Sequence record: DRR723986_1308
Reading direction: 5' to 3' (one strand)
Length of the DNA stretch: 44,269 nucleotides
Shown here: piece by piece, positions 2,855 through 37,957 of the stretch
How positions within the stretch are numbered: position 1 is the first letter of the stretch
How the letters are laid out: each line of letters starts with the position of its first letter
Notes under the pieces: generated by a model
What the model saw: the letters and a program-made list of their open reading frames with translations, nothing else
What the model was told of the DNA's origin: nothing
The model's database searches: none
Program-made: the position numbers and the translations under genes

Positions 2855-3967
2855 TCACCCCGTGGATAAGATCAGTGAGTGAGCCTCCAGCCATGTTGGC
2901 GGTTCGCACTTTGCTGCTAGTTTCCGGATGACTTTCTCAGGGACGGCGTGTTGGCGGCTCTTGTTTTGGTTGAGCAGCCTGTTGAAGTGGGGCTCAACGT
3001 AGACCACTTCAATTCTTGCGTTGTAGTCGGCAAACAGATCGATCCATCGCATTCGAGTTTGCTTCAGGATGTTTGTTGCATTGAACGCAAACGACACGCC
3101 AGTGCGGAGGTACTCCCGACACCGCTCTTTGGCTGTTTGGATTACTTTGCCCTGATTGTCCGTCGGGGCGATATCGAGTTCACCGCGGATACCGTCAAGG
3201 GCGACGATCGGTAGGTCGCCGCGGTTATGCGAAAGCCAAGTGTCTTTGCCACTACCGGGTAATCCGCTCATGATTGTCACGCTGCAGGCGTGGTCCACGT
3301 AAGGAACATAATGCAAATTCGGGGCCCGCTGACGAAAAAATGTAAATCGAGCGTGATCATTTTCAAACCTATAGGGCCTGGAGTAGCAGTCGAGTTCCTC
3401 GGCCTGCACTTTCCAGTAGCTCAGGTTTTCTTCTGGTCGAGTTGTTGATTCGGTGCGACGGCCCCGAGTGTCGGCAACCGCGAATAGGTAGAGCAAGCGA
3501 TTTTCGACAATCCACGACATTCGTACAAGTTCATGAACCGGATCAGATCGCTCAGCAAGAAATGCAGGCCGACCGTGAAACCGCACCAACCGACAGATTT
3601 TTTCACGCGTATCAAGACGGCAATCTAGGTCGCGCAACACGTGACGCGCAAGGTGCTCACCCTTTACGGCGTGATTCGGTGAAGTGATGTGCCCTGATTC
3701 CGGATCAACCAGAGATGTCAGTGGTTTTGCCGCATCATGGAGGAGCGCCGTGAAGATCAGTACCGCTCGGTCGTCAGCGGACAGTTCCTGCCACTCGGCA
3801 AGCCGAGTTAGTTCGCGGCAGACCATTTGGGTGTGCGTCCATACGTCTCCCTCAGCGTGCCACTCGGCATCCTGCGCGCACTTGGCCATCGCTTGGCACC
3901 ACGACTGGGACTCCGCCCACTTCACGATGTCATCAACCGATGATCGACTGAGTTGGTTCCATTTCAT
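2855..3967 (-). CDS. HD-domain phosphohydrolase fused to a P-loop polynucleotide-kinase-like (AAA_33) domain
   Basis: HD motifs [25 protein letters not shown] and VAD; Walker [14 protein letters not shown]. The start overlaps the upstream alkB-like stop as ATGA. Confidence 0.88.
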
Positions 3968-4491
3968 TGAACTGCTCGCCATGTGAGGCTAATGCGTGGA
4001 TCTGCCGAGTCCTGTTTCTTGATCGCGTGTTGCCATTCATCCTGCACGCCCGGCCTCATGTAGAGCAGAGTCCCGGCGTTCAGGACGCAATTATGTGTAA
4101 AAAGTCGATCCGCCGAACGGAAGGTAAGCGTTCTCGTTCCGCCTAGCGAAACGATCGCAACGCCGCTGCCGGACATGAGATTGTCCGTCTCGTCGGAATG
4201 AAACCCCATGCTGTTCTGGCCGTTTTCGTACAGATTCATCAGGCAATTGTTGAACGGGATATCAAGGCGTCGGACGAGTTGGTTGCGAAGTGGTGCCAGA
4301 CAGGGGAGCAGTTCCCTCGTCATATAAGTCATTTGGGAGTAGTCGTAGGGTTTCCCAAAACTGGCGGTCTTCCTGGCGTTCATGCTTTCATCCCAAGCAA
4401 CAGACTGCATCAATTCGTCAAAGAGCGAAGCGTGGTCTACGTAGAAACCAGGATCAAACTCAGTGTCGAGTGCGTGCGTCATGTAGGTCAC
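3964..4491 (-). CDS. AlkB-family 2OG-Fe(II) dioxygenase
   Basis: [11 protein letters not shown], HxD (FHSDE), WQHAI and RISLTWR. The GTG start overlaps the ligase stop (GTGA). Confidence 0.9.
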
Positions 4492-5231
4492 TCCCAGATA
4501 TTTACGCCGTCTGCGAGCTCGTTGGGAACCATCACTTGTTGCTGCCAGTGAGTACTCTGCTTAATCTTCTCGACGAACTCAGGCCGCACGTACTTTGCTC
4601 GTCCGGTTACGATGCCGTCTGCCTCAGTTCTCATATACAAACCTTCCATCAAGTTGTCGGTTCTCTTTGTGCTGGGATTCTCGAATTGGCTGTCAAAACG
4701 TGACGCCCCAACCAAGTGACTCAGGTCCTTACGTTTTAGTGCACCCCGATGAACGACTGGGACAGTAACTATGCCTGTGCCAGCCAGAAGCTCCAGTCGC
4801 CGGTAGAGGCTAATGAAAGCTTCTGTCTCCTTGTCATAGATGTCGAACTCGAGGAAGTAATGTTCTAGTTGTCGATAGTGGATCGAATGACGAGCGTAAA
4901 CCCACTCGCCAAACAGAATGAAACGTTGCTCCAGTCTCTCCTCTAACACGTTGCGTTTCACCGACGCCCATTGTTTGAAGAGGTCGTACTGGGCATGCAT
5001 GCCTTCAGTAATCAAGTGCCCGCGGCATTGGAGCACGAGTTCGCCGGCTGTTGAAAAATGCATCCCGACGTTGGTTCCGTCGACCTTTTCTTCAACGATC
5101 AAAGAATCATCGCTGATGAAATCAAGCGACTCAGATTCCCCCAGATGCTTGTCATCGTTTGTCCCCTTTGATCCGAACAGATGCGGCGTGCGAGGGTACT
5201 TCACGAAGTTGCCGTGTGAGGCGCCCATCAT
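4488..5231 (-). CDS. ATP-dependent RNA ligase family protein
   Basis: KYPRTPHL, motif [25 protein letters not shown] and AKYVR. RBS AGGAG precedes the ATG at 5231. Confidence 0.9.
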
Positions 5232-5582
5232 ATTGCTCCTGCGGTGCGGGACTGCGAAATAATCGAGGCAATGAATTCGCCATATTGGCACTTCATCGGT
5301 AAGTTGTAGTCGGTCCGTATGCGTCTTCGGCGAGCGACTACAGCCCTGCCCGAAACGGGTTTGCTGGCCATTTTGTCGTACGCTTCCCAGTAGAAGCCGA
5401 TACCACGCTTCTGTGGGCTCCTTCTGCTGGCAAGTGGAAAACGTGAAGCAAGCGGAATCAGATGGACACATTTGGGATTCGGTGGTTCACGTTAGCGAAC
5501 CTCCGCGAGGGCTGAACTGTCGAACAGAAAAGCCAATTCGCTACGACCAACCGGGGATGTGGCGACCAGAGGGGATATAGCC

Positions 5583-6565: not shown

Positions 6566-7198
6566 CTAAACAAGGCCTTTGCGAACAGCCCATACGGCAG
6601 CCTGGGTTCGGTCGGAGACACCGATCTTTCGCAAGATGTGCTGGACGTGCTCCTTTACCGTCTCGTAGCTGATGCCGAGGGCCAGAGCAATTTCTTTGTT
6701 CGTAAGGCCGTTGGCAAGCTGCCGGAGCACCTCGCTCTCGCGCTGAGTCAACGGAACCTCGACATCGGAGACTACTCGAGGAGTCGCAAGCGCGCCGGTC
6801 ACACGCCGAAGTTCCTCACGCGACCAAGCGCTTTCGCCTCGCGCCGCAGTCTCGATTGCTTCGATCAGTCGTTCTTTGGAGTCATTCTTAAGAATGTAAC
6901 CCGCTGCACCCAGAGCCACAGCTCGTGCAATGTAGGTCGGATTGTCGTAGGTCGAGAACATGACAATCGGTAGGTCGGGATAATCTAGCTTCAGACGGCC
7001 AAGCACATGCAGGCCATCGCCTTTTGGCATGCGAACATCGAGAAGCACACAACTAGGACGATTCTCAGCGACTCGTGCAATTACTTCCTCACCGGTCGTC
7101 GCTTCTGCAGTCACCGAAATGCCGGTGCCCTCAAGAACATTCGTAAGGCCCAAACGCACAACTTGATGGTCATCTGCGACCAGCAAAGATACGGTCAT
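6566..7198 (-). CDS. NarL/LuxR family DNA-binding response regulator
   Basis: REC domain (ADDH, LLDVRMP, YILK) plus LuxR HTH LTQRESEVL..GLTNKEIA..ETVKEHV. Confidence 0.95.
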   Translation of the reverse strand: MTVSLLVADDHQVVRLGLTNVLEGTGISVTAEATTGEEVIARVAENRPSCVLLDVRMPKGDGLHVLGRLKLDYPDLPIVMFSTYDNPTYIARAVALGAAGYILKNDSKERLIEAIETAARGESAWSREELRRVTGALATPRVVSDVEVPLTQRESEVLRQLANGLTNKEIALALGISYETVKEHVQHILRKIGVSDRTQAAVWAVRKGLV

Positions 7199-7427
7199 CG
7201 TTTTCTCTCTGTCAGAGAAGGATTAATGCGGCAACGGGATGACGGGCGGGGGGCAGTCTCATCCCAAAAGAACGGGTATTGCCATGTGGCAGTCCACATG
7301 CCCGTCCGGGCCAATATCCTCATTTTGAGGGATGAGCTCAAGAGGAGTTCAGCCAAACGGGTGGTTGCGAACAGGTGGTAGGTCACTACCTAAACGGGCT
7401 ACTTCCAATCTAGTCTGCTCAGCATTG

Positions 7428-15201: not shown

Positions 15202-15495
15202 GACTCGAACATTTGTTTGTTGTCAAAAAGCGCTGGCGCGTCGCATTCGATCAGCGGCAGGCGTGGATCACAAGCCCGAAAGCCAGCGGCTGAAAGGCGT
15301 TCGCGGTTCAAGGTGCAGAACGGGCTGGTGGGAATTTGGCGTACTGCCGGGCGAAAAATTTGCATCTCAGCGATACTGACGTAGATTTCAGATGGCGAAC
15401 ATTCGGCAAAATGCCCAGGCCGTAAATCAAGTGCTCGCGGCAGGAGAATTGTGGTCAAGGTGGGCTCCGTTAGGCAGCGAACCACAGAGGGTGCC

Positions 15496-16206
15496 ATGAT
15501 CGTTGATTCTATATCACGCGACGAAATGCTAGATGCAGTCCGCATCTACTGCACTCTTCACGGTTTACCCACTGATGAGGCTCGGATTGAACAACGCGTT
15601 TCTCGATTCCTTGCCAATGAGCCCGACGATTTAATCGATTTGGCAATCGTTGCCTATCAAGAGGATCGGATGGTCGCGCCGCCGGATATCGTGATCGATT
15701 GCTGGGGTAAGAGTCGCTACTATGTACTGCGAAACACCGGAGAAGACGGGCAATTCCGACATCAGGTCTTTGAGCCCTGGTTTGAGAATGACTGTTCGTT
15801 GGCGGGACTTCTGTCGGACGAAATTCTCGTTCACTTTTGGACGGACTTTGAACGACAACGCGAAGGGCTCTTGCCGGAACGCGGGCCTGCGTCAAAATCG
15901 ATTACGGAGTACTTGCATCGCGGATTGCGGCTACGTCTGCGGGCGTCGGATGGCAGCGAGCCAATCGAAGTTCACCACTGTGACGACGGCAAACTTGGGG
16001 AGTTGTCGGAGAAGATTAGCGATGAGATTCGCTTGATCAATGAGTCTGCAGAGATTCGCTACCTACCACTGGTAGACGCACTCTATGAACAAGACGATGT
16101 TCTGAAGTGCAAGCTGCTGGTTGCGTTAGCCGGCCCGGCACATACGGCGAGTGATATCGCCGCACATGCCGAGTCGGCTTTCTTCGCAAAGCGTGCCCAT
16201 TGTTGA
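15496..16206 (+). CDS. Hypothetical protein
   Basis: About 236 aa ORF with GAGG upstream of the ATG. No family recognised. Confidence 0.7.
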   Translation: MIVDSISRDEMLDAVRIYCTLHGLPTDEARIEQRVSRFLANEPDDLIDLAIVAYQEDRMVAPPDIVIDCWGKSRYYVLRNTGEDGQFRHQVFEPWFENDCSLAGLLSDEILVHFWTDFERQREGLLPERGPASKSITEYLHRGLRLRLRASDGSEPIEVHHCDDGKLGELSEKISDEIRLINESAEIRYLPLVDALYEQDDVLKCKLLVALAGPAHTASDIAAHAESAFFAKRAHC

Positions 16207-16239
16207 GCACACTAAAGTAGGTAGAGCTTGGTTGCATGC

Positions 16240-17280
16240 CCACGCTTGCGCTCCCTGCTCCGCGTGGCTTGCCTAGTCATACGATCGTGACAAACGCATC
16301 CTGCATTGTACAATCCTGCACTCCATTGCGTGACCAATCCCTTGGTCTTCAGCGGCCGTCTTGGCATCGCCGATTTTTTCGGTGGGTTGCTTCCCTGCCA
16401 TCCGATAGAGTCTGCATCCTACAGACTCAACAGCGATCCTTCGCCTGTGACCAATCCGTGGTGAAGAACGTTGCTTCGTGCAATGTTCTTGCCGCGTTCC
16501 CTCGCAGTAAGCCAATCCTTGGCATTTTCGCTGCGTCCCAGCAGCCTTTCCAGTCGCAAATCCCTTCGACTGGGGTTGCCGACGCGGCACTCGCGGCGAG
16601 GTTCGCCGCAAATGCCGTGTCCGCTGATTTCTCGCGGGCGAGTAAGCAACCTTGCTGACTCACCGGCGGAGCGTCTTGCTCCATTTGTAGTGCAGCGTCT
16701 TGCCACACTGTTTACTAGGCGTAGCTTCTTGCCATGCCGTTGTTTTCAGCGGGCATCTTGCCACGCTGTTTTCTTGACGTAGCATCTTGCCACGCCGCGT
16801 GTCCGGGGAAGCGTCCTGCTTCGCCGTTTGTTTCAGCGAAGCATCCTGCCTCACTGTTCTGTTGAGCGAAGCATCCTGCCTCACCACACTTTTTTGCGAA
16901 GCATCCTGCCTCACAAATTTTTCGGCGAAACATCTTGCTTCACCAAATTGCTTTGCAAAGCATCATGCTTTGCACTAGTTGCAAGCGAAGCGTCCTGCCT
17001 CACTTTCGCTTCCAGTAAAGCATCCTGCTTTACCGAATCTTTTTTGGGCGAAGCATCTTGCTGCACCCAGTTTCGCCGCTGGCGTCCTTGCCAAGAGATC
17101 CAATTCCCTTGTACCGGCGAATCGTGCTTTAGCTACATCACGCGGCATTGAATTTAGCGATCCATCGCCGACCAATCCTTGGTCCATTCGTTTGCGTCGC
17201 ATCCCGGCAACTTGTTGAGAGCTTGTCGCTCTCTTGACTGCTATCCCTTGCAGCCATGTCGGTGATGTTCTTGCCAAGCA
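16240..17280 (-). ncRNA. Candidate CsrB/RsmZ-like multi-GGA-hairpin sRNA (putative CsrA sponge)
   Basis: No credible ORF. About 34 GGA on minus versus 2 on plus, most in short hairpin loops, e.g. GACCA-AGGGAU-UGGUC, GCG-AAGGAU-CGC, GCG-AUGGAU-CGC, GCCA-AGGAU-UGGC. Boundaries are approximate. Confidence 0.6.
16666..17095 (-). repeat. Tandem array of about 15 palindromic 19-nt units with mostly 29-30 bp period
   Basis: Plus-strand consensus GCGAAGCATCYTGCYTCRC. Cores at 16671, 16695, 16724, 16753, 16782, 16811, 16841, 16871, 16901, 16930, 16960, 16990, 17020, 17053 and 17082, separated by variable ~10-11 nt linkers. Confidence 0.9.
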
Positions 17281-17287
17281 CGGGATT

Positions 17288-17315
17288 ACTATAGAGGGAT
17301 TTAACGATGAGCAAA
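17288..17315 (-). promoter_or_regulatory. Possible sigma70 promoter for the GGA-hairpin RNA
   Basis: TATAGT at 17293-17288 with a weak -35 (TTTGCT, 16 bp spacer), just upstream of the first GGA hairpin. Confidence 0.3.
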
Positions 17316-17456
17316 GCGAAATAAGTCGCAACGATTGCGTATTGCGGAAAGCCGTTGAAACCGCGTCAATTCTTGCGGGCCGCCGCAGTAAGGCACCGGT
17401 GCAGGGTGTTGACACGAGCGTGTCGTTTGACTAGAGAAATCTTTGCTAATACGCAA

Positions 17457-17798
17457 CTATGCGTCGTCAAGAATGTCGATCAGATCGTCGATCGAAAATG
17501 GTTTGGCTAGCAAAGCGTCGAAGTCTGCATAGGCCAAAGCATTCTCGCTTCGTGACGCGTGATCGCCGGTAACTGCAACAACGCGAGTTGTACTGCTGAT
17601 TTCTTTCACGCGTCGTAGCACTTCGAAACCATCAACGTCTGGCATGTTGATATCGGTAAAGACAATATCGTAGCTATCTATTTGATCCGTGTTCTCAGGC
17701 CAGTATTCCATACTGTCGACGTTGTGCCCAAGCGCTTCGACACCCATTCGAAGCGCCTCTCGGACCAATGGATCGTCATCAAAAACAGCAATGTTCAT
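17457..17798 (-). CDS. Single-domain CheY-like response regulator
   Basis: VFDDD, VFTDINMPDVDG, AVTG and KPF. Confidence 0.93.
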   Translation of the reverse strand: MNIAVFDDDPLVREALRMGVEALGHNVDSMEYWPENTDQIDSYDIVFTDINMPDVDGFEVLRRVKEISSTTRVVAVTGDHASRSENALAYADFDALLAKPFSIDDLIDILDDA

Positions 17799-17840: not shown

Positions 17841-20492
17841 TCAATCAACAGGCTTTGATATAGAACGAACGACCTCGGACATCTGCGCTAAAGTATAAGG
17901 TTTGAAGACCACCGTATCGAAGGGGGCTGAATTAATCCGCTTAACCACGCTGGGATCGGTTTCGCCGCTGAGGGCCACCACGGCTGGGCGAATTTTTGAT
18001 GGCAACTTATGAACTTCTGCCAAGACTGAAAACCCATCCTGCTCTGGCATATTAATGTCGGTGACAACAAGATCATACTGTCGCGCGTCCAGCAACTGCT
18101 TGGCATCTTCCCAGCCGTTGCAAGAGCTGCATTCACAGCCAAGCGCTCGCAACGTGGCAACCGTGCTCTCTAGGACCAGCGGGTCATCATCAATGACGCA
18201 TGTCAGAATCTGAGTGCTGTCACAAGAACCTGAAACCGGTTCCTGCCCGCGATTTGCAATGTGCTTCGTCATTTTATTGGCTTTGGTCAATTCAACCCCC
18301 AAATCAAGATACAGACAGTTGATGCCTGTTCCGTCGCGATGTACGGCAATTTTGCCACCGAGCAAGCGAGCAATAGCCTCGACGATTCCTTGTTCAGCCC
18401 AACCGCTGTCCTCTGCGGAATCGGACGTAGAGGCGGTTGATCTTTTGCTGATGCGATTGCTGGCGGCCGATGCATCTCTTTCACTTCGCTCAATTGTTAG
18501 CGTCAGTAACAAACGGGCAGCAGTTGTATTTTCAGTCTGGTCCGCAAGCCTCGCGCCGATCAAGACGCTTCCGCCGTCGGACGCCTTTCCTGCGACGCGG
18601 CAAAGCCCTTGGATAAGTTTCGTTAGCTTCAAAGGGTACGACTTGATGTTTTGCCCCAGGCCACAAGCGTCATCGAGTGTGAAGCGAAAGGTGCAGTCCG
18701 GTTGAAGTTGACGAACATTCGCCAAAGCAGCCTTCAAGACTGAGCTCAGTTCCACGTCCTGCTTTGCTTCATCGAGCAAATCGCCTGCGCCCATCGCAAG
18801 GGCATCAGGGGCAGAGCTAAGCGCGTGAAGGATTCCGTCTAGTTCACGCGAGCCACTTTCGATTGTCTGCAATTGTCGTAGTAAGCTCTCTTCGTGCTCC
18901 TCGGAGCTAATCACACACCGGCTTGCAAGCGAGATTGCTTGCAGCGGCTCCCGTAAGGTCTCAGCGACAAGGTCCAGCGTTTGCTGCCTTTGGTGCTCGA
19001 GAGTACCAGTTGTGTCTTTAACACTCTGCAGCTCGACCAATTGTTCGTCTAGTTTATCCTGTAGCCGCCGTGTCTCTTGCCAGTTTTGCGACCAACCTAG
19101 CACAGCAATGCCGAGACAGCCCAATAGGCCGACTGCTAGGCCCCAAGAAAGCTTGCTTTGAAACGGCAGATGTGCGTCTGCCCCAATCGCACTGACGGTT
19201 GACGGTTGAGACCAACTGAGCAAAGGCTGTAGTCTATGCGCAACGCAATGCTCCAAACGCTCTCCCTGCAAGACTCGATCGATGGCCGACCGCTCGACCC
19301 CTTCAAAGAGCTTGGCTGCATCGAATTGCCCGAGCTGAATTGAGGCGATTTGGCCAATGACCGCAAGTTCGGCTGCTGCTGCAATGCACTGCATCGTCGT
19401 CGATTCAATTAGCCGAACACGAGCGATATCGAAAGCCCTGCCAAAATCCTCTGCACGGAAACTAGTAATCGCTTCATCGACGGCCAGACGCATCTCGAAT
19501 ATAGGATCCTCCGGTTCGTAGGCGTTTCCAAGTGCGATGTGTCGCGACCGCTTTGCGATCGTTAGGCTGTTAGAAATCTCGGCCAATTCGAAAAGCAGCG
19601 CCGCACTGAGCACCTTTTCCGACGGCAGCGAGTCTCCTTTGCGGGCTAGGGCCAGAATCTGTCGCGCTTTTTGGGAAGCGATTGAGGGGGCGTCCAGCGG
19701 TAGCGGTGCAAGTGCTTGCTCGATGAGGTCGTTGTCTTCGGCAATGTTGGACAAACGCATTGCAGCGTGTCGTGCAAACACATTACTGAGATTGGAATTC
19801 ACTCGCATGCAGTTGATGAGCAAGCGGTCGACCGAAATCTGAAGTGCCCGATCACCGGCAAGCTTTGCAATCGCTTGAGCCCGGACCGCGTACTTGCAAG
19901 CGATGTCCATATTGCCGACTAGACAACTGTCCTGCGCGCAGAAAGCGTGCAAAGTTGTTGCAAACTCAAGGCACGGCTGGTGGAGCGACAGTCCAAGCAC
20001 GGTGTTCAACTGAGCGTTTAGTTTGTCAGCGTGCGAATTCCGTTCTGCGGAACGGCTGTTCGAATCTGCAGAATCAGCGGTGTATAAGTTTCGTCGGCGG
20101 AGCAGCAGCTCCAGGACTGCATTTTCCACAAGAAGTCGAATCCGACCATCTCGCAGCCTGCTGCCGGGCAAAGTGACAAGCCGCGTAAGCTCGTCCGTAT
20201 CGATGGTGCCATCTAGCGAATTACCAGTTTCCTGATCGATAATTGAACGGAGATATTCAAGCCGCCGTCCAATGACTTCGCTCCGCAATCCGTTTTGATG
20301 TTCAGCGGTTTCCTGGCGTACAATCTCCGCTTCAACCGCTTGCTTCCACAACTCTGGACTGGCGGGCAGTGCGACCATCCGACCTAGAAACGCAAGCTGG
20401 TAACTTCCACCGGTTCGACCCGCCTGAACCGAATTCTGCAAGTGCAACAGGAGTGTAAGCGCTGTAAGGCAACACAAAAGGTGACGAAGCAT
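17841..20492 (-). CDS. Membrane hybrid sensor with a degenerate histidine-kinase core and a C-terminal receiver
   Basis: Signal peptide, large helical extracytoplasmic region, TM and coiled coil. The H-box-like VAETLREPLQAI has no His. The receiver (VIDDD..TDINMP..KPY) is intact. Confidence 0.82.
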   Translation of the reverse strand: MLRHLLCCLTALTLLLHLQNSVQAGRTGGSYQLAFLGRMVALPASPELWKQAVEAEIVRQETAEHQNGLRSEVIGRRLEYLRSIIDQETGNSLDGTIDTDELTRLVTLPGSRLRDGRIRLLVENAVLELLLRRRNLYTADSADSNSRSAERNSHADKLNAQLNTVLGLSLHQPCLEFATTLHAFCAQDSCLVGNMDIACKYAVRAQAIAKLAGDRALQISVDRLLINCMRVNSNLSNVFARHAAMRLSNIAEDNDLIEQALAPLPLDAPSIASQKARQILALARKGDSLPSEKVLSAALLFELAEISNSLTIAKRSRHIALGNAYEPEDPIFEMRLAVDEAITSFRAEDFGRAFDIARVRLIESTTMQCIAAAAELAVIGQIASIQLGQFDAAKLFEGVERSAIDRVLQGERLEHCVAHRLQPLLSWSQPSTVSAIGADAHLPFQSKLSWGLAVGLLGCLGIAVLGWSQNWQETRRLQDKLDEQLVELQSVKDTTGTLEHQRQQTLDLVAETLREPLQAISLASRCVISSEEHEESLLRQLQTIESGSRELDGILHALSSAPDALAMGAGDLLDEAKQDVELSSVLKAALANVRQLQPDCTFRFTLDDACGLGQNIKSYPLKLTKLIQGLCRVAGKASDGGSVLIGARLADQTENTTAARLLLTLTIERSERDASAASNRISKRSTASTSDSAEDSGWAEQGIVEAIARLLGGKIAVHRDGTGINCLYLDLGVELTKANKMTKHIANRGQEPVSGSCDSTQILTCVIDDDPLVLESTVATLRALGCECSSCNGWEDAKQLLDARQYDLVVTDINMPEQDGFSVLAEVHKLPSKIRPAVVALSGETDPSVVKRINSAPFDTVVFKPYTLAQMSEVVRSISKPVD

Positions 20493-29555: not shown

Positions 29556-30031
29556 TGGATTGACTCCGAGATTTTCTCTTCTCAAATTTCTTGTTGGCAA
29601 CTATCGATAGCCGCGAACCTGCTGGCCGAAAAAAGGCTTCTTGGGGGAGCGGTCGCACGCATTCTTTGTGTGGACAGTACTAATGCCGACATTTCGTCGC
29701 TAGGCGAATTCGCTCCTTTGCATGCAATGGTGGCGTTCGCGACCGTCTGCAGGCGTTACTCGGCTGGTGTTCGCTTAGCTACGGTCTTGCTCAGATCTGA
29801 CGTGAAGAGCGGCAAAGGCGGGAGAGGCCGTTCAGTACCTGAGGCCGTTCGGGGGCTTAGCGGTTTTGTGACACAGCAACCGCGAACGAACCCTGCGAGA
29901 AGGGGTTTTCACCAGGAAATGCAGCGCAGAAAGGGGTGAAATAGCGAACCGGGTGCAAAAAGCTACTTGCCTCCGTGGGCCACTTAGCCGAAGATAAGGT
30001 GTTCGCAGACTCCCCGCGGAATCAATCTGCA

Positions 30032-30389
30032 GGGGGCGAAATGGTATCGACCGGATAGTTAGAAGTGAGGGTGGCGTGCCGTGGTTGGTCAGTTGGCCAC
30101 GTAAAAAGCTGACCACAAAATTTAGTTGCAGACAATAGTCTAGCAATGGCAGCCTAACACGGTTGCCCTGGCTGAGGGGGTTCGCCAGAGACGCCCGACT
30201 GCCAGTCGCAATTCTGGATCGTCCTTTGCCGCGCTCGGGCACGCAAGGGATTAAAAATTGCTCCCGGCTGGTTTGACCGGAAGCCTTGCTAATAGGCGTC
30301 TGGATGAACGAGATATAAACAATTAGCTATGCACGTAGAGGCCTTCATGGAAATATCTCGGGACGCGGGTTCGATTCCCGCCGCCTCCA
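30032..30389 (+). ncRNA. ssrA: tmRNA
   Basis: 5' GGGGGCGAAATGGTATCGAC and 3' GCGGGTTCGATTCCCGCCGCCTCCA. Tag frame 30128-30157 encodes ADNSLAMAA*. CCA is not encoded. Confidence 0.96.
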
Positions 30390-30428
30390 TTGACACGCCG
30401 TAGTGAACAACACGGCTTATCCCAAAGC

Positions 30429-35900: not shown

Positions 35901-36310
35901 AGTGGAAACAGGCCTGGAGCGGCGATGCGGCATAGCGTTTCGGCGCGGTTCCAGGACGCGTGAAACGCCTTTAGACGCAAGGTTGCGTTCTGATCCAACC
36001 ACTGCACGTACCGCGTCTGGCCAGCGGCTTCGGCTTCAAACCAGCCTCGCCACAGCGGCTCCGGAGCATTGCCGCGAATACGCCAAATACCGCGTTTCAA
36101 CGAAGCTGCTGTGTCGGTTTGGAGGGATTCGGCCTGGAATGGCGTTACCTTCCCGTCGGCGACCAATTTCTTGAGCAACAGCCTTCCATCGGCCAATTCT
36201 GCAGCCGAGAGCGATTGCGCGACTTCGCCAGCCCATCCTCGGGTCTGTTCATCGGTAGCAAGCCCCGATGCGACGATGCGTTTCCATAGTTCTGAACTTG
36301 TGAGCGTCAT
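32999..36310 (-). CDS. Membrane Ser/Thr protein kinase-like protein (probable pseudokinase)
   Basis: FLAPE, TDVYALG and RFRNAGEL are present but the catalytic loop reads VHGRVMPDRLL. Followed by a Lys/Ala/Pro-rich linker, TM and a large external domain. Confidence 0.85.
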   Translation of the reverse strand: MTLTSSELWKRIVASGLATDEQTRGWAGEVAQSLSAAELADGRLLLKKLVADGKVTPFQAESLQTDTAASLKRGIWRIRGNAPEPLWRGWFEAEAAGQTRYVQWLDQNATLRLKAFHASWNRAETLCRIAAPGLFPLASIASADGAMQLVHPIAEGSLLNCKRRADASTIIHGLAGALAALHSANIVHGRVMPDRLLEMHNGSLGVIADPICGNTSRSDESGSCGVFPNLLDSRTPEEQFLAPEFNTPGQKPTMATDVYALGCLWWLLSTGKPIVAASDTISMMSAHCEALPALPANASLADGEAEVLRSCLGRNLDSRFRNAGELLAALAEVRSAHLAVASEDAQPEVHSKDSAKPLKQADAPQKPAAKPQATTSEKPVAKAKQSKAAQPTRKSEAKSKSQPEGKAVAKAVVKPSHSDTKSAASVTGASPVKATKKVEPDPATQRAAPPAKRPNTVNAEPQKAKTTPAAKTESEQKAPKRESVKKEAAKPLAQSRPEAAAEQPAEKPAEQLAENGPIPAEAVEKDAPRALKPTSKKAPSSPAANSEIGRKGSPARKKRKRKKGNSWILPVAGGCGFIILLLAILKLSGALEPGAEETVQKPAPAYVPSNSEPTGPTEPTSEYYVQRASDSGNLWMPPRDPSPWSVDHLPPGAQMFVHVKPAFLNSDIAKLAASTESWIEQIQQDVAVPLAEARAVNVAFYPPTVDGGQPIVAYRVSLREATTLEELGQKLSDAPPAQLAGQKIFASDRLAFWPHVDEQGSSATGFTVASIEQMKEAIDLGGEAAPMLSDVENLWELSDEQADMSVLLAPAFLFSNGRRLSESMPPRLSRLLSEQLEEGVRSAMLQISLDEGWYSELFLIGESPTAAAVISQDMADQLKQLPTVVEDWFVDQAPDPHWAAIAFRFPQMLRAFASFTRTGMENGVAITNTYLPRDAAANLVLATSIAMQPTATVSGGPSFAGAAEAKPLSTEEYLNRKIRRINFAQEPIEVALEYIGDEANDSLPNGTPKFAFILDGDAFEAGGITRNQQLSDFDFSDISVRDALTEVAKRGNPVTTVTDTREADQRLIWIVRDAETAQPKILLTTRAAAAAAGDELTIEFRPE

Positions 36311-36669
36311 GCCGGATCAGGAAAAACGTAAAGGGTGGCTGTCAAAACCTCTCAGTATAACTGATCAAGCGAAGCGACTACACGACTTCTGTGCAGGTGG
36401 GGAGTGCTCTGAGAGTACTTACCAGTGCGGAAATAGGCTCAAGCAGCAAAAGCCCTTCTTTTGATTCGAATCACCAACAGAAAGCGGAACTCCGTGGGGC
36501 AGTTCTTGAACCTGGTTGCGTGGTCCTGCTTCTCGGCGACAATCTTCTGCTCGCGCTGTCTGGTGTAGGAAGCTCGTTGCGAAAACTGGGGCGACGTACG
36601 AGCACAAGCTACTCTGGACAAAAAGCCCACGTTGTTTAGCTATGGTTCGCCGAATTCAAGGAGGCACCC

Positions 36670-37224
36670 ATGACCACTTATGATCCTGAGAAACTGAAGA
36701 ATTTGGTCAAAGAGCATGCACTGGAGTTTGGTGATTTTACGCTCGCGAGCGGAAAAAAAGCCAGTTTCTACCTAGACTGTCGGAAGTTGACCCTGCACCC
36801 TCAAGGAGCCAACCAAATTGGTGCAGGAATGCTCAGCCTGCTCGGCGATTCACTTCCAAACGCCGTTGGAGGAATGGCCATTGGTGCGGACCCGATAACG
36901 GCAGCAACCATCACCATCGCTGGCCAACGCGACCTCGATCTGCTTGGATTTATCGTTCGCAAAGAGGCCAAGGGACACGGGACCGGCCGGCAAGTCGAAG
37001 GGCCTGTAGCAGATGGCATGACTGCCGTAATCGTTGAAGACGTCGTCACCAGCGGCGGTTCGGCCCTGAAAGCTGTTGACGCTGTGCGTGAATTCGGGCT
37101 AAAAGTGGATACGATTCTTGCCGTTGTTGACCGCTTGGAAGGTGGAAGAGAGGCAGTCGAAGCAGCCGGATTGCAACTCAAGACGCTAACCACTGTCGAA
37201 GAATTGGGCATCAAGAAGAGCTAA
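36670..37224 (+). CDS. pyrE: Orotate phosphoribosyltransferase
   Basis: FGDFTLASG, YLDCR, RKEAKGHG and the PRPP motif VEDVVTSGGS; RBS GGAGG. Confidence 0.97.
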   Translation: MTTYDPEKLKNLVKEHALEFGDFTLASGKKASFYLDCRKLTLHPQGANQIGAGMLSLLGDSLPNAVGGMAIGADPITAATITIAGQRDLDLLGFIVRKEAKGHGTGRQVEGPVADGMTAVIVEDVVTSGGSALKAVDAVREFGLKVDTILAVVDRLEGGREAVEAAGLQLKTLTTVEELGIKKS

Positions 37225-37267
37225 AGTCGGCTTCACTTACGACCCGCAACTGTCGAATAGAGCTGGT

Positions 37268-37957
37268 ATGGAAACCTCGCTTCACAAACAACTTAAACAG
37301 CGTTATGCATCCCGAGAGGATCAAACGGAAGTTGTCGTGGACGGGTTTCGCATCGATGCAATCGCCGATAATGGTGAATTGATCGAGATCCAGCACGCTT
37401 CGCTAGGGGCCTTGCGCGACAAGACAAGGAAACTGCTCAAGAGCACTCGTCATCGAGTGCGGATCGTTAAACCTGTCTTGGCCAAGAAACGAATTAGTAC
37501 GTTAGACAAACGAGATGGTGAAGTTATCAGATCTCGTATGAGCCCCAAGCGTGGGCAGTTGATCGACTTTTTCGAAGATATGGTGCACTTCAGCAACGTG
37601 TTTCCGATGAAGCGATTGATCTTGGAAATTGTGCTGGTTGAGTCTGAGGAATTCCGGCTCGATCGCGCTCGCCCAACTCGACGTCGCAAGAAGTACAAGA
37701 CAGTCGACCAAGCCTTGGTCGATGTTCGAGAATCCGTTGAGCTAAGAACAAAGTCAGACCTGCTCAACACGCTCGATCACCATTCTTTGCCGAGTGAATT
37801 TGATACCGCCCAACTCGCTGAGGCGATTGGAAAACCGCGCTGGTTTGCACAAAAAGTTGCCTACTGCTTGCGTGAAACCGAAGCAATTCGACTGCACAGT
37901 AAACGCGGCAATAACCTTATCTACCGATTCAGCGCCCGACGTCGCCGAGCCGCTTAG
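37268..37957 (+). CDS. Conserved hypothetical protein with a PD-(D/E)xK-like fold and C-terminal wHTH
   Basis: ETSLHKQLK, E..RID..IEIQ pattern; C-terminal FDTAQLAE..AQKVAYCL. Confidence 0.75.
   Translation: METSLHKQLKQRYASREDQTEVVVDGFRIDAIADNGELIEIQHASLGALRDKTRKLLKSTRHRVRIVKPVLAKKRISTLDKRDGEVIRSRMSPKRGQLIDFFEDMVHFSNVFPMKRLILEIVLVESEEFRLDRARPTRRRKKYKTVDQALVDVRESVELRTKSDLLNTLDHHSLPSEFDTAQLAEAIGKPRWFAQKVAYCLRETEAIRLHSKRGNNLIYRFSARRRRAA

Follow-up and report, generated by a model that had tools for sequence, protein, structure and literature searches.

RNA decoys acting on CsrA, which is among the most widespread post-transcriptional regulators of bacteria, include CsrB of Escherichia coli and RsmB of Pectobacterium (Rfam clan CL00106), both of them non-coding and purine-rich, with many A(N)GGA or CAGGA(U/A/C)G motifs in loops of 5-6 nucleotides (nt) closed by C-G pairs, with very few UCC, and with duplicated hairpin modules. 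RsmX, RsmY, and RsmZ (Pseudomonas, Legionella) are GacA-driven chains of GGA-loop hairpins of 100-130 nt with 4-8 sites, which sequester RsmA/RsmE dimers. In Bacillus and Campylobacter the same need, the control of free CsrA, is served by FliW, which, unlike an RNA decoy, is a protein acting allosterically. In a stretch of 44,269 nt from sequence record DRR723986_1308 (hereafter the window, at its full length), an element on the minus strand at positions 16240-17280 shares all these traits of CsrB and RsmB, as well as the GGA-loop hairpin chain of the Rsm RNAs. We interpret it, with moderate confidence, as an independently evolved, unusually large CsrB-like decoy RNA for CsrA in a planctomycete, encoded downstream of a kinase-like/receiver gene pair.

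In the available excerpts of PMC10729762 and PMC13443453, A(N)GGA in hairpin loops is given as the recognition determinant of CsrA, and CsrA is described as widespread in Planctomycetota. The preliminary description of the window had put forward that planctomycetes encode several CsrA paralogues, which agrees in part with this distribution and with the enrichment of COG1551 in Planctomycetia that the excerpted text of PMC12316311 reports, together with sigma-54 promoters at csrA of Pirellula sp. strain 1; however, the figure of up to 15 CsrA copies in some genomes names no phylum in the excerpt of PMC13443453. RNA decoys of CsrA have been characterised mainly in Gammaproteobacteria, and the Planctomycetes are among the phyla predicted to use FliW (Zere et al. 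2015, PMC4682653, in excerpt). A 2020 review places the Csr small RNAs (sRNAs) in "many Gammaproteobacteria" and, in its available part, leaves open whether FliW and an sRNA act jointly in any species (PMC7652899). In the titles and abstract openings of the literature on CsrA in Planctomycetota, with subscription journals outside this scope, no CsrA-binding RNA from this phylum was found.

GGA-loop hairpins on the minus strand

16240-17280, minus strand: candidate non-coding RNA of ~1.04 kilobases (kb), from GGA/UCC counts, hairpin statistics, and folding

The preliminary description had counted 34 GGA on the minus strand of this interval and 2 on the plus strand, and both counts proved exact. 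Most of these GGA (29 of 34) are part of A(N)GGA, 13 as AGGA and 16 as ANGGA, and seven conform to CAGGA[UAC]G. The 13 hairpins, or groups of hairpins, proposed at the same time were also all recovered at their places. A simple search for hairpins, with G-U pairs permitted, found 28 of the 34 GGA to be loop-borne when stems of at least 3 base pairs (bp) and loops of 4-9 nt were accepted, and 24 when the stem had to reach 4 bp and the loop to measure 4-8 nt. Under this stricter measure, 1000 dinucleotide shuffles, holding 21.9 ± 3.8 GGA in total, gave 5.18 ± 2.21 loop-borne GGA (maximum 13), and 328 other intervals of 1041 nt from both strands of the 44 kb gave 4.9 ± 2.3 (maximum 15). Folding by minimum free energy (MFE) with ViennaRNA, with a pair span of up to 120, placed at least 2 nt of the GGA in a hairpin loop in 17 of 34 cases, against 3.9 ± 1.9 (maximum 10) in 60 shuffles. 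The observation of GGA in hairpin loops is confirmed, far beyond chance, and these loops are borne by many unrelated stems, 25 of the 34 GGA lying outside the tandem array described below. In addition, the excess of GGA over UCC at the element (32) is the highest of all 1041-nt intervals, the next value being 22 among 1638 non-overlapping ones, and its RNA strand contains only 2 UCC, when the minimum in any other interval is 4.

The same hairpin measure was applied to E. coli CsrB (369 nt) as a positive control, which contains 22 GGA and 2 UCC and has 11 of its 22 GGA in hairpin loops, against 3.5 ± 1.7 in shuffles; the element equals or exceeds CsrB in loop presentation and in UCC avoidance, and carries 7 copies of CAGGA[UAC]G compared to 9 in CsrB. 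It differs from CsrB in being about three times longer (1041 vs. 369 nt), in its probable planctomycete host, and in the AAGA sequence of half of its array loops, as well as in its GGA density and in the lack of a UvrY/GacA box and of a U-tract terminator, which are weighed further below. Compared to RsmX, RsmY, and RsmZ, it is larger by a factor of ten, and the window showed no evident orthologue of GacA. A parallel is also found in RsmW of Pseudomonas aeruginosa, for which 7 GGA, 3 of them in outer loops, and species of 400 and 120 nt are given in the excerpted text of PMC4950607: the element likewise lies directly behind a same-strand receiver gene, without a called promoter, but has 34 GGA and is parted from the receiver gene by a terminator-like hairpin. 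In every sequence-level feature that could be tested here, the element appears to resemble the Csr/Rsm sponges.

The interval had been described as lacking a credible open reading frame (ORF), and this was borne out by different tests. None of the seven ORFs tested belonged to a Pfam family (E below 0.01), and codon log-odds were negative in nine of nine ORFs (-0.01 to -0.14 per codon) under a model fitted to 19 of the window's genes, which score +0.113 ± 0.036 (minimum 0.051) when left out in turn; the two genes flanking the element reached +0.125 and +0.206. Each of the six frames contains 4-11 stops across the element. The longest ORF, of 146 amino acids (aa), had one match in 1.84 billion representatives (E 4.6e-5), a collagen-repeat protein, and this match is composition-driven (composition-corrected BLASTP E 0.93). 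The element is, in consequence of these results, regarded as non-coding.

Elsewhere in the window, the second-largest GGA/UCC asymmetry (27 vs. 5) was located at 36301-37341 on the plus strand, over an intergenic stretch and a phosphoribosyltransferase-like gene; it lacks hairpin enrichment and is probably a codon effect. Four GGA-loop hairpins within ~60 nt (7264-7319) were also detected on the minus strand in the leader of a NarL-type response-regulator gene (7199-7427), a weak signal that may be due to chance.

Anatomy and strand of the element

Read from 5' to 3' along the minus strand, the element contains the following parts:

17070-17280, minus strand: 5' module with 8 GGA on unrelated stems (hairpin finder, folding)
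16665-17067, minus strand: tandem array of 14 hairpin units with a spacing of 29-33 nt (repeat and alignment analysis)
16571-16664, minus strand: GGA-poor linker (1 GGA in 94 nt) with two long, very stable G+C-rich hairpins (folding)
16285-16570, minus strand: 3' module with 14 GGA (hairpin finder, folding)
16432-16462, minus strand: two-hairpin module, ACCA-CGGAU-UGGU then GGCGA-AGGA-UCGCU, a diverged duplicate of 17156-17184

The hairpins of the 5' module include UGGCUGC-AAGGGAUA-GCAGUCA, GUUGC-CGGGAU-GCGAC, GACCA-AGGAU-UGGUC, GGCGA-UGGA-UCGCU, and UUGGC-AAGGAC-GCCAG, and those of the 3' module GCCA-AGGAU-UGGC, CUGCG-AGGGAA-CGCGG, GGCGA-AGGA-UCGCU, GAGUCUGU-AGGAU-GCAGACUC, GACCAA-GGGA-UUGGUC, and AAUGC-AGGAU-GCGUU; the last stem at the 3' end (16268-16240) holds two GGA inside its large loop. 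As the two-hairpin module GACCA-AGGAU-UGGUC plus GGCGA-UGGA-UCGCU of the 5' part (17184-17156) recurs in diverged form ~722 nt away, at 16462-16432, the element has grown by module duplication. Within the 44 kb, 5 of 6 matches of GCAGGATGC, 4 of 4 of the 21-mer unit, and 2 of 2 of the GGCGA hairpin were located at this locus, all in one orientation. The linker may mark where one RNA ends and another begins.

The units of the tandem array have the apex GC-A[G/A/U]GA[U/C/A]-GC and stems with many G-U pairs, and their period shifts from 30 to 29 nt. When the 14 units were aligned, the 8-bp stem was paired in 92% of the cells, compared to 36-52% with the partner slid, and 11 double-change cells were present in 3 pairs, with a covariation score of 0.468 vs. 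0.271; none of 500 shuffles reached either value, the units being paralogues and these pairing and covariation figures not being probabilities. The array stems carry compensatory changes, and the hairpins have been maintained. Regarding the loops, six of the 14 read AGGAY, seven AAGAN, and one AUGAU, with A, G, and A invariant at positions 1, 3, and 4, and with G (6), A (7), or U (1) at position 2.

Both strands were compared for their capacity to form these structures. The minus strand forms 24 hairpins, whose stems total 146 bp and include 25 G-U pairs, and the same sites on the plus strand form 17 hairpins with 80 bp. Whole-element MFE was -419.7 kcal/mol (z -11.6) for the minus strand vs. 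-362.5 (z -8.3) for the plus strand, and the minus strand was also the more stable one for the 5' module (-75.4 vs. -64.9 kcal/mol), the tandem array (-180.3 vs. -134.8), and the linker (-53.9 vs. -46.3). Folding favours the minus strand in three of the four segments.

Surroundings, host, and relatives of the locus

As stated in the preliminary description, the element lies between two convergent genes, the receiver gene and a conserved hypothetical gene, in the following setting:

17841-20492, minus strand: protein of 883 aa with a receiver domain at its C-terminus, 42 nt upstream of the receiver gene
17457-17798, minus strand: receiver-domain-only protein of 113 aa, on the same strand as the element and directly upstream of it
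17327-17346, minus strand: terminator-like hairpin of 6 bp then ACUUAUUUCG, located after the receiver gene and before the first GGA hairpin
17288-17293, minus strand: TATAGT, a possible -10 box, immediately upstream of the first hairpin
16191-16212, minus strand: hairpin of 8 bp (2 G-U pairs) then UUUG, spanning the stop codon of the convergent gene
15451-16206, plus strand: conserved hypothetical protein of 251 aa, convergent, the gene ending 34 nt from the element

Residues ~475-878 of the 883-aa protein weakly resemble hybrid histidine kinases, and Pfam recognised in it only the receiver domain, plus a faint hint of HWE_HK. No close homologue of this protein was present among 5.8 billion proteins, the best one being 22% identical over 43% of its length. 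The 251-aa hypothetical protein has a single homologue, P0128 (encoded on a JGI contig of 1,760 bp), which is 62-67% identical and conserved through the last residue; therefore, it corresponds to a real gene. About 110 nt separate the stop of the receiver gene from the terminator-like hairpin at 17346-17327, which hints at, and does not prove, a separate transcription unit for the element. No acceptable -35 was found for the TATAGT at 17288-17293, and no relevant larger inverted repeats were present upstream of the element. The hairpin at 16191-16212, which lies below the criteria of the terminator scan, is a possible 3' end of the element.

The host is probably a poorly sampled planctomycete, in agreement with the preliminary description, since the neighbouring flavin mononucleotide (FMN)-binding protein has 1263 homologues (the best one, P0008 from an NCBI contig of 64 kb, 54% identical, the others ~40% or lower), of which those with names belong to Pirellulaceae, Planctomycetales, or Planctomycetaceae bacteria, or to Symmachiella, and the nearest Atlas cluster of GyrA is mostly from Planctomycetota.

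Relatives of the locus were searched for in several ways. Genome contigs searched with the 883-aa neighbour yielded 22 loci, all of them matching mainly or only in the receiver part (residues 475-883) and none orthologous; the metagenome searched with an alignment of the 251-aa neighbour and P0128 yielded nothing, and the PLSDB plasmids no match. A pattern scan of the metagenome for three GCARGAYGC units returned at least 118 stretches, and among the matches listed none was related to this locus, whether judged with blastn or from its flanking proteins.

The three-unit pattern (GCAGGAYGC...GCARGAYGC...GCARGAYGC) mostly matched coding tandem repeats with open frames (L080, L138, L092, and most others listed), and pattern matches alone do not indicate sponge RNAs. 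Two matches were of a different nature. Locus L085 (contig MKWU01000168.1), on the reverse strand at ~3780-4340 of the reverse complement, is a non-coding array of 575 nt with 41 GGA, 27-35 of them in hairpin loops, and with hairpins such as GGGCAGGAUGCYCC, GGGACAGGAGUCCC, and similar ones. The array is preceded by a terminator and an A+T-rich promoter-like stretch, and adjoins uvrD and a parC of Gram-negative type, so its host is probably a proteobacterium; it resembles a CsrB/RsmB-type sponge and matches no Rfam family at gathering threshold. Locus L029 (contig Ga0194122_10141668, 1298 bp; reverse strand, 200-1298) consists throughout of ~21-nt units (CAGCAGCAGGAUGCUGGCAGA) that extend over more than 1 kb, with a G+C content of 48%. 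It has 41 GGA and 2 UCC, 27 of the GGA being located in hairpins with stems of 4 bp or more, and is likewise a very long GGA-hairpin array without a counterpart in Rfam. None of the 15 metagenomic array loci searched with Rfam reached a gathering threshold.

Across the window, the only Rfam match at gathering threshold was the transfer-messenger RNA (tmRNA) gene at 30032-30392 on the plus strand (172.9 bits; tag peptide ADNSLAMAA by ARAGORN), and the ORF overlapping it on the minus strand (29832-30242) is probably spurious. The NarL-type regulator encoded at 6566-7198 was considered as a UvrY/GacA orthologue and rejected, with 80 bits vs. a model cut-off of 280. Finally, three adjoining genes at 2855-5471 on the minus strand encode an RNA ligase (PF09414), an AlkB-like 2-oxoglutarate (2OG)-Fe(II) oxygenase, and a fusion of HDIG and kinase-like domains, a group that may be an RNA repair cluster.

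Proposed function and alternative explanations

From the sequence we infer that the element would be transcribed, would bind CsrA, and would have a regulatory consequence. According to this proposal, the minus strand at ~16240-17280 would encode a long non-coding RNA. Its transcription would start at a dedicated promoter immediately behind the receiver gene, or else the RNA would be a 3' extension of the operon, like RsmW in Pseudomonas. The RNA would fold as a chain of ~24-28 short hairpins whose loops of 4-8 nt display A(N)GGA, the site of the CsrA/RsmA dimer, and would act as a multivalent decoy that titrates one or more CsrA-family proteins off the leaders of messenger RNAs, with a capacity of about a dozen dimers at roughly two sites per dimer.

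Several results weigh against this proposal. With Rfam 15, the best match of the element was to CsrB (RF00018) on the minus strand, with 19.5 bits and E 0.008, followed by a second CsrB match of 11.5 bits and by a weak minus-strand match to PrrB/RsmZ (RF00166) at 16401-16526, with 16.4 bits and E 0.63. All Csr-type matches fell on the minus strand, and the plus strand gave only chance-level matches to other families (e.g., Bp1_781, E 0.026), but the Csr-type scores are far under the gathering thresholds (71 bits for CsrB and 44 for PrrB_RsmZ) and, as the matches are sub-threshold only, the element is not a member of the CsrB or RsmZ families by covariance model. No sigma-70-like promoter was called on its minus strand in a consensus scan, no U-tract terminator was found at its 3' end, the sole minus-strand terminator-like site being the upstream one at 17346-17327, and the GacA/UvrY box (TGTAAG-N6-CTTACA) is absent, none of its five matches in the window (up to 3 mismatches, a total below the chance expectation) being near the element. 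These missing signals fit an unknown promoter type or a 3' extension of the receiver operon. In addition, the remark that the window holds no csrA was correct, as tblastn with gammaproteobacterial CsrA gave no match at E up to 10 along the 44 kb, where fliW is absent too, and the related loci envisaged in the preliminary description were not found in genome contigs, metagenome contigs, or plasmids. The density of GGA, 3.3 per 100 nt, is about half of that of CsrB (6.0), and 8 of the 14 array loops lack GGA (7 AAGA, 1 AUGA), in hairpins that seem no less well kept than those with AGGA. AAGA loops should not be bound by canonical CsrA; their hairpins could act as a scaffold, represent sites in decay, or be read by another protein or paralogue. 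Finally, the 3' module folds slightly better on the plus strand (-102.8 vs. -97.6 kcal/mol), with a stronger z-score there (-6.5) than on the minus strand (-2.2 to -2.4). As this module goes the opposite way to the others, folding z-scores are indecisive alone as a strand test; for the 3' module, it is the one-sided GGA/UCC pattern that settles the minus strand.

Taken with these points, the label of CsrB/RsmZ-like sponge given to the element in the first place is kept in part: the A(N)GGA loops on one strand and on many stems, the UCC depletion, the module duplication, the hints of CsrB and RsmZ, and values at least as high as those of CsrB on the hairpin measure speak for it. The presumed independent evolution of the element derives solely from the unreached Rfam thresholds.

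Other explanations were weighed on the same data. A coding nature of the element, be it as a gene, as a tandem repeat, or as a pseudogene in decay, is hardly credible: open frames of up to 146 aa do exist, and most of the other metagenomic matches to the three-unit pattern that were inspected are coding repeats, but the stops in every frame, the negative codon log-odds, the absence of Pfam families, the composition-driven nature of the collagen match, and the shift of the period from 30 to 29 nt all oppose it, and this reading was rejected. A CRISPR array was also rejected, because the 29-30-nt period leaves no spacers (the CRISPR-DR36 match had E 3.5), as was a type III toxin-antitoxin RNA of the ToxI kind, because no minus-strand ORF follows and the next gene is convergent. 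It is rather unlikely, in our view, that the locus is a locally amplified cluster of hairpin repeats of the REP, BOX, or MIRU kind without a dedicated function, in which the GGA loops would be a trait of the repeat family and CsrA binding would be incidental. Such a cluster would account for the tandem core with its 29-30-nt period, for the modules duplicated ~722 nt apart, and for the absence of promoter and terminator calls. However, REP clusters are usually of mixed orientation, and here every GGA loop is on one strand; the modules do not recur elsewhere in the 44 kb, the 25 GGA outside the array stand on many unrelated stems, and the array units have diverged with compensatory changes instead of being near-identical young copies. 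The depletion of UCC over the whole kilobase is likewise unexplained by copy-and-paste.

A structured RNA, either an sRNA or a long 3' untranslated region of the receiver operon, might also serve another partner or purpose, such as a protein reading A-R-G-A-Y, a stability or processing element, or a scaffold. Its position on the same strand, directly behind the kinase-like/receiver pair, would suit this explanation, and so would the array, where the conserved loop word is ARGA and not GGA, because only A, G, and A at positions 1, 3, and 4 are invariant and position 2 varies, and where the AAGA hairpins keep their pairing. We nevertheless consider it fairly improbable, as the avoidance of UCC fits the keeping of GGA in single-stranded form, and we know of no other bacterial protein with specificity for A(N)GGA loops. 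The loops outside the array are, moreover, overwhelmingly A(N)GGA, the CsrA determinant named in the excerpt of PMC10729762. In a sub-variant of the decoy proposal, which seems quite improbable to us, the stretch would comprise two or three Csr-type sRNA genes instead of one, with the 5' module and the array on one side, the 3' module on the other, and the G+C-rich hairpins at 16571-16664 as the divide. Known systems often carry several sponges (CsrB/C, RsmX/Y/Z), the linker holds one GGA and two very stable hairpins, and a sigma-54-like GG-N10-GC word (CGGCAAGAACAUUGCA) lies inside the element at 16479-16494 on the minus strand, its first 11 bases recurring exactly near the 5' end of the element (17265-17275 and 16483-16493). 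Against this, sigma-54 matches in the window are at chance level (27 found, 27.1 expected), and the linker has no U-tract terminator.

The decoy proposal can be extended, very tentatively and with considerable doubt, to a 1-kb "super-sponge" that would be the first RNA antagonist of CsrA in the class Planctomycetia, independent of the gammaproteobacterial Csr/Rsm RNAs, with two maintained classes of loops, AGGAY for canonical CsrA and AAGAY for a diverged paralogue or a second protein. In that case, a single RNA would serve as a buffer for several proteins of the expanded CsrA family, and the neighbouring orphan kinase-like/receiver pair would determine how much of this RNA is present.

If the element is indeed a decoy of CsrA, RNA sequestration of this regulator would have evolved more than once, and the locus would open a way to study post-transcriptional control in Planctomycetota, from which hardly any sRNAs have been described. 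Such a decoy would be relevant, too, to the coexistence of RNA and protein antagonists of CsrA, a question still open in the available part of PMC7652899, and its size and its mixture of GGA and AGA loops would inform on how the capacity and the specificity of a sponge are tuned.

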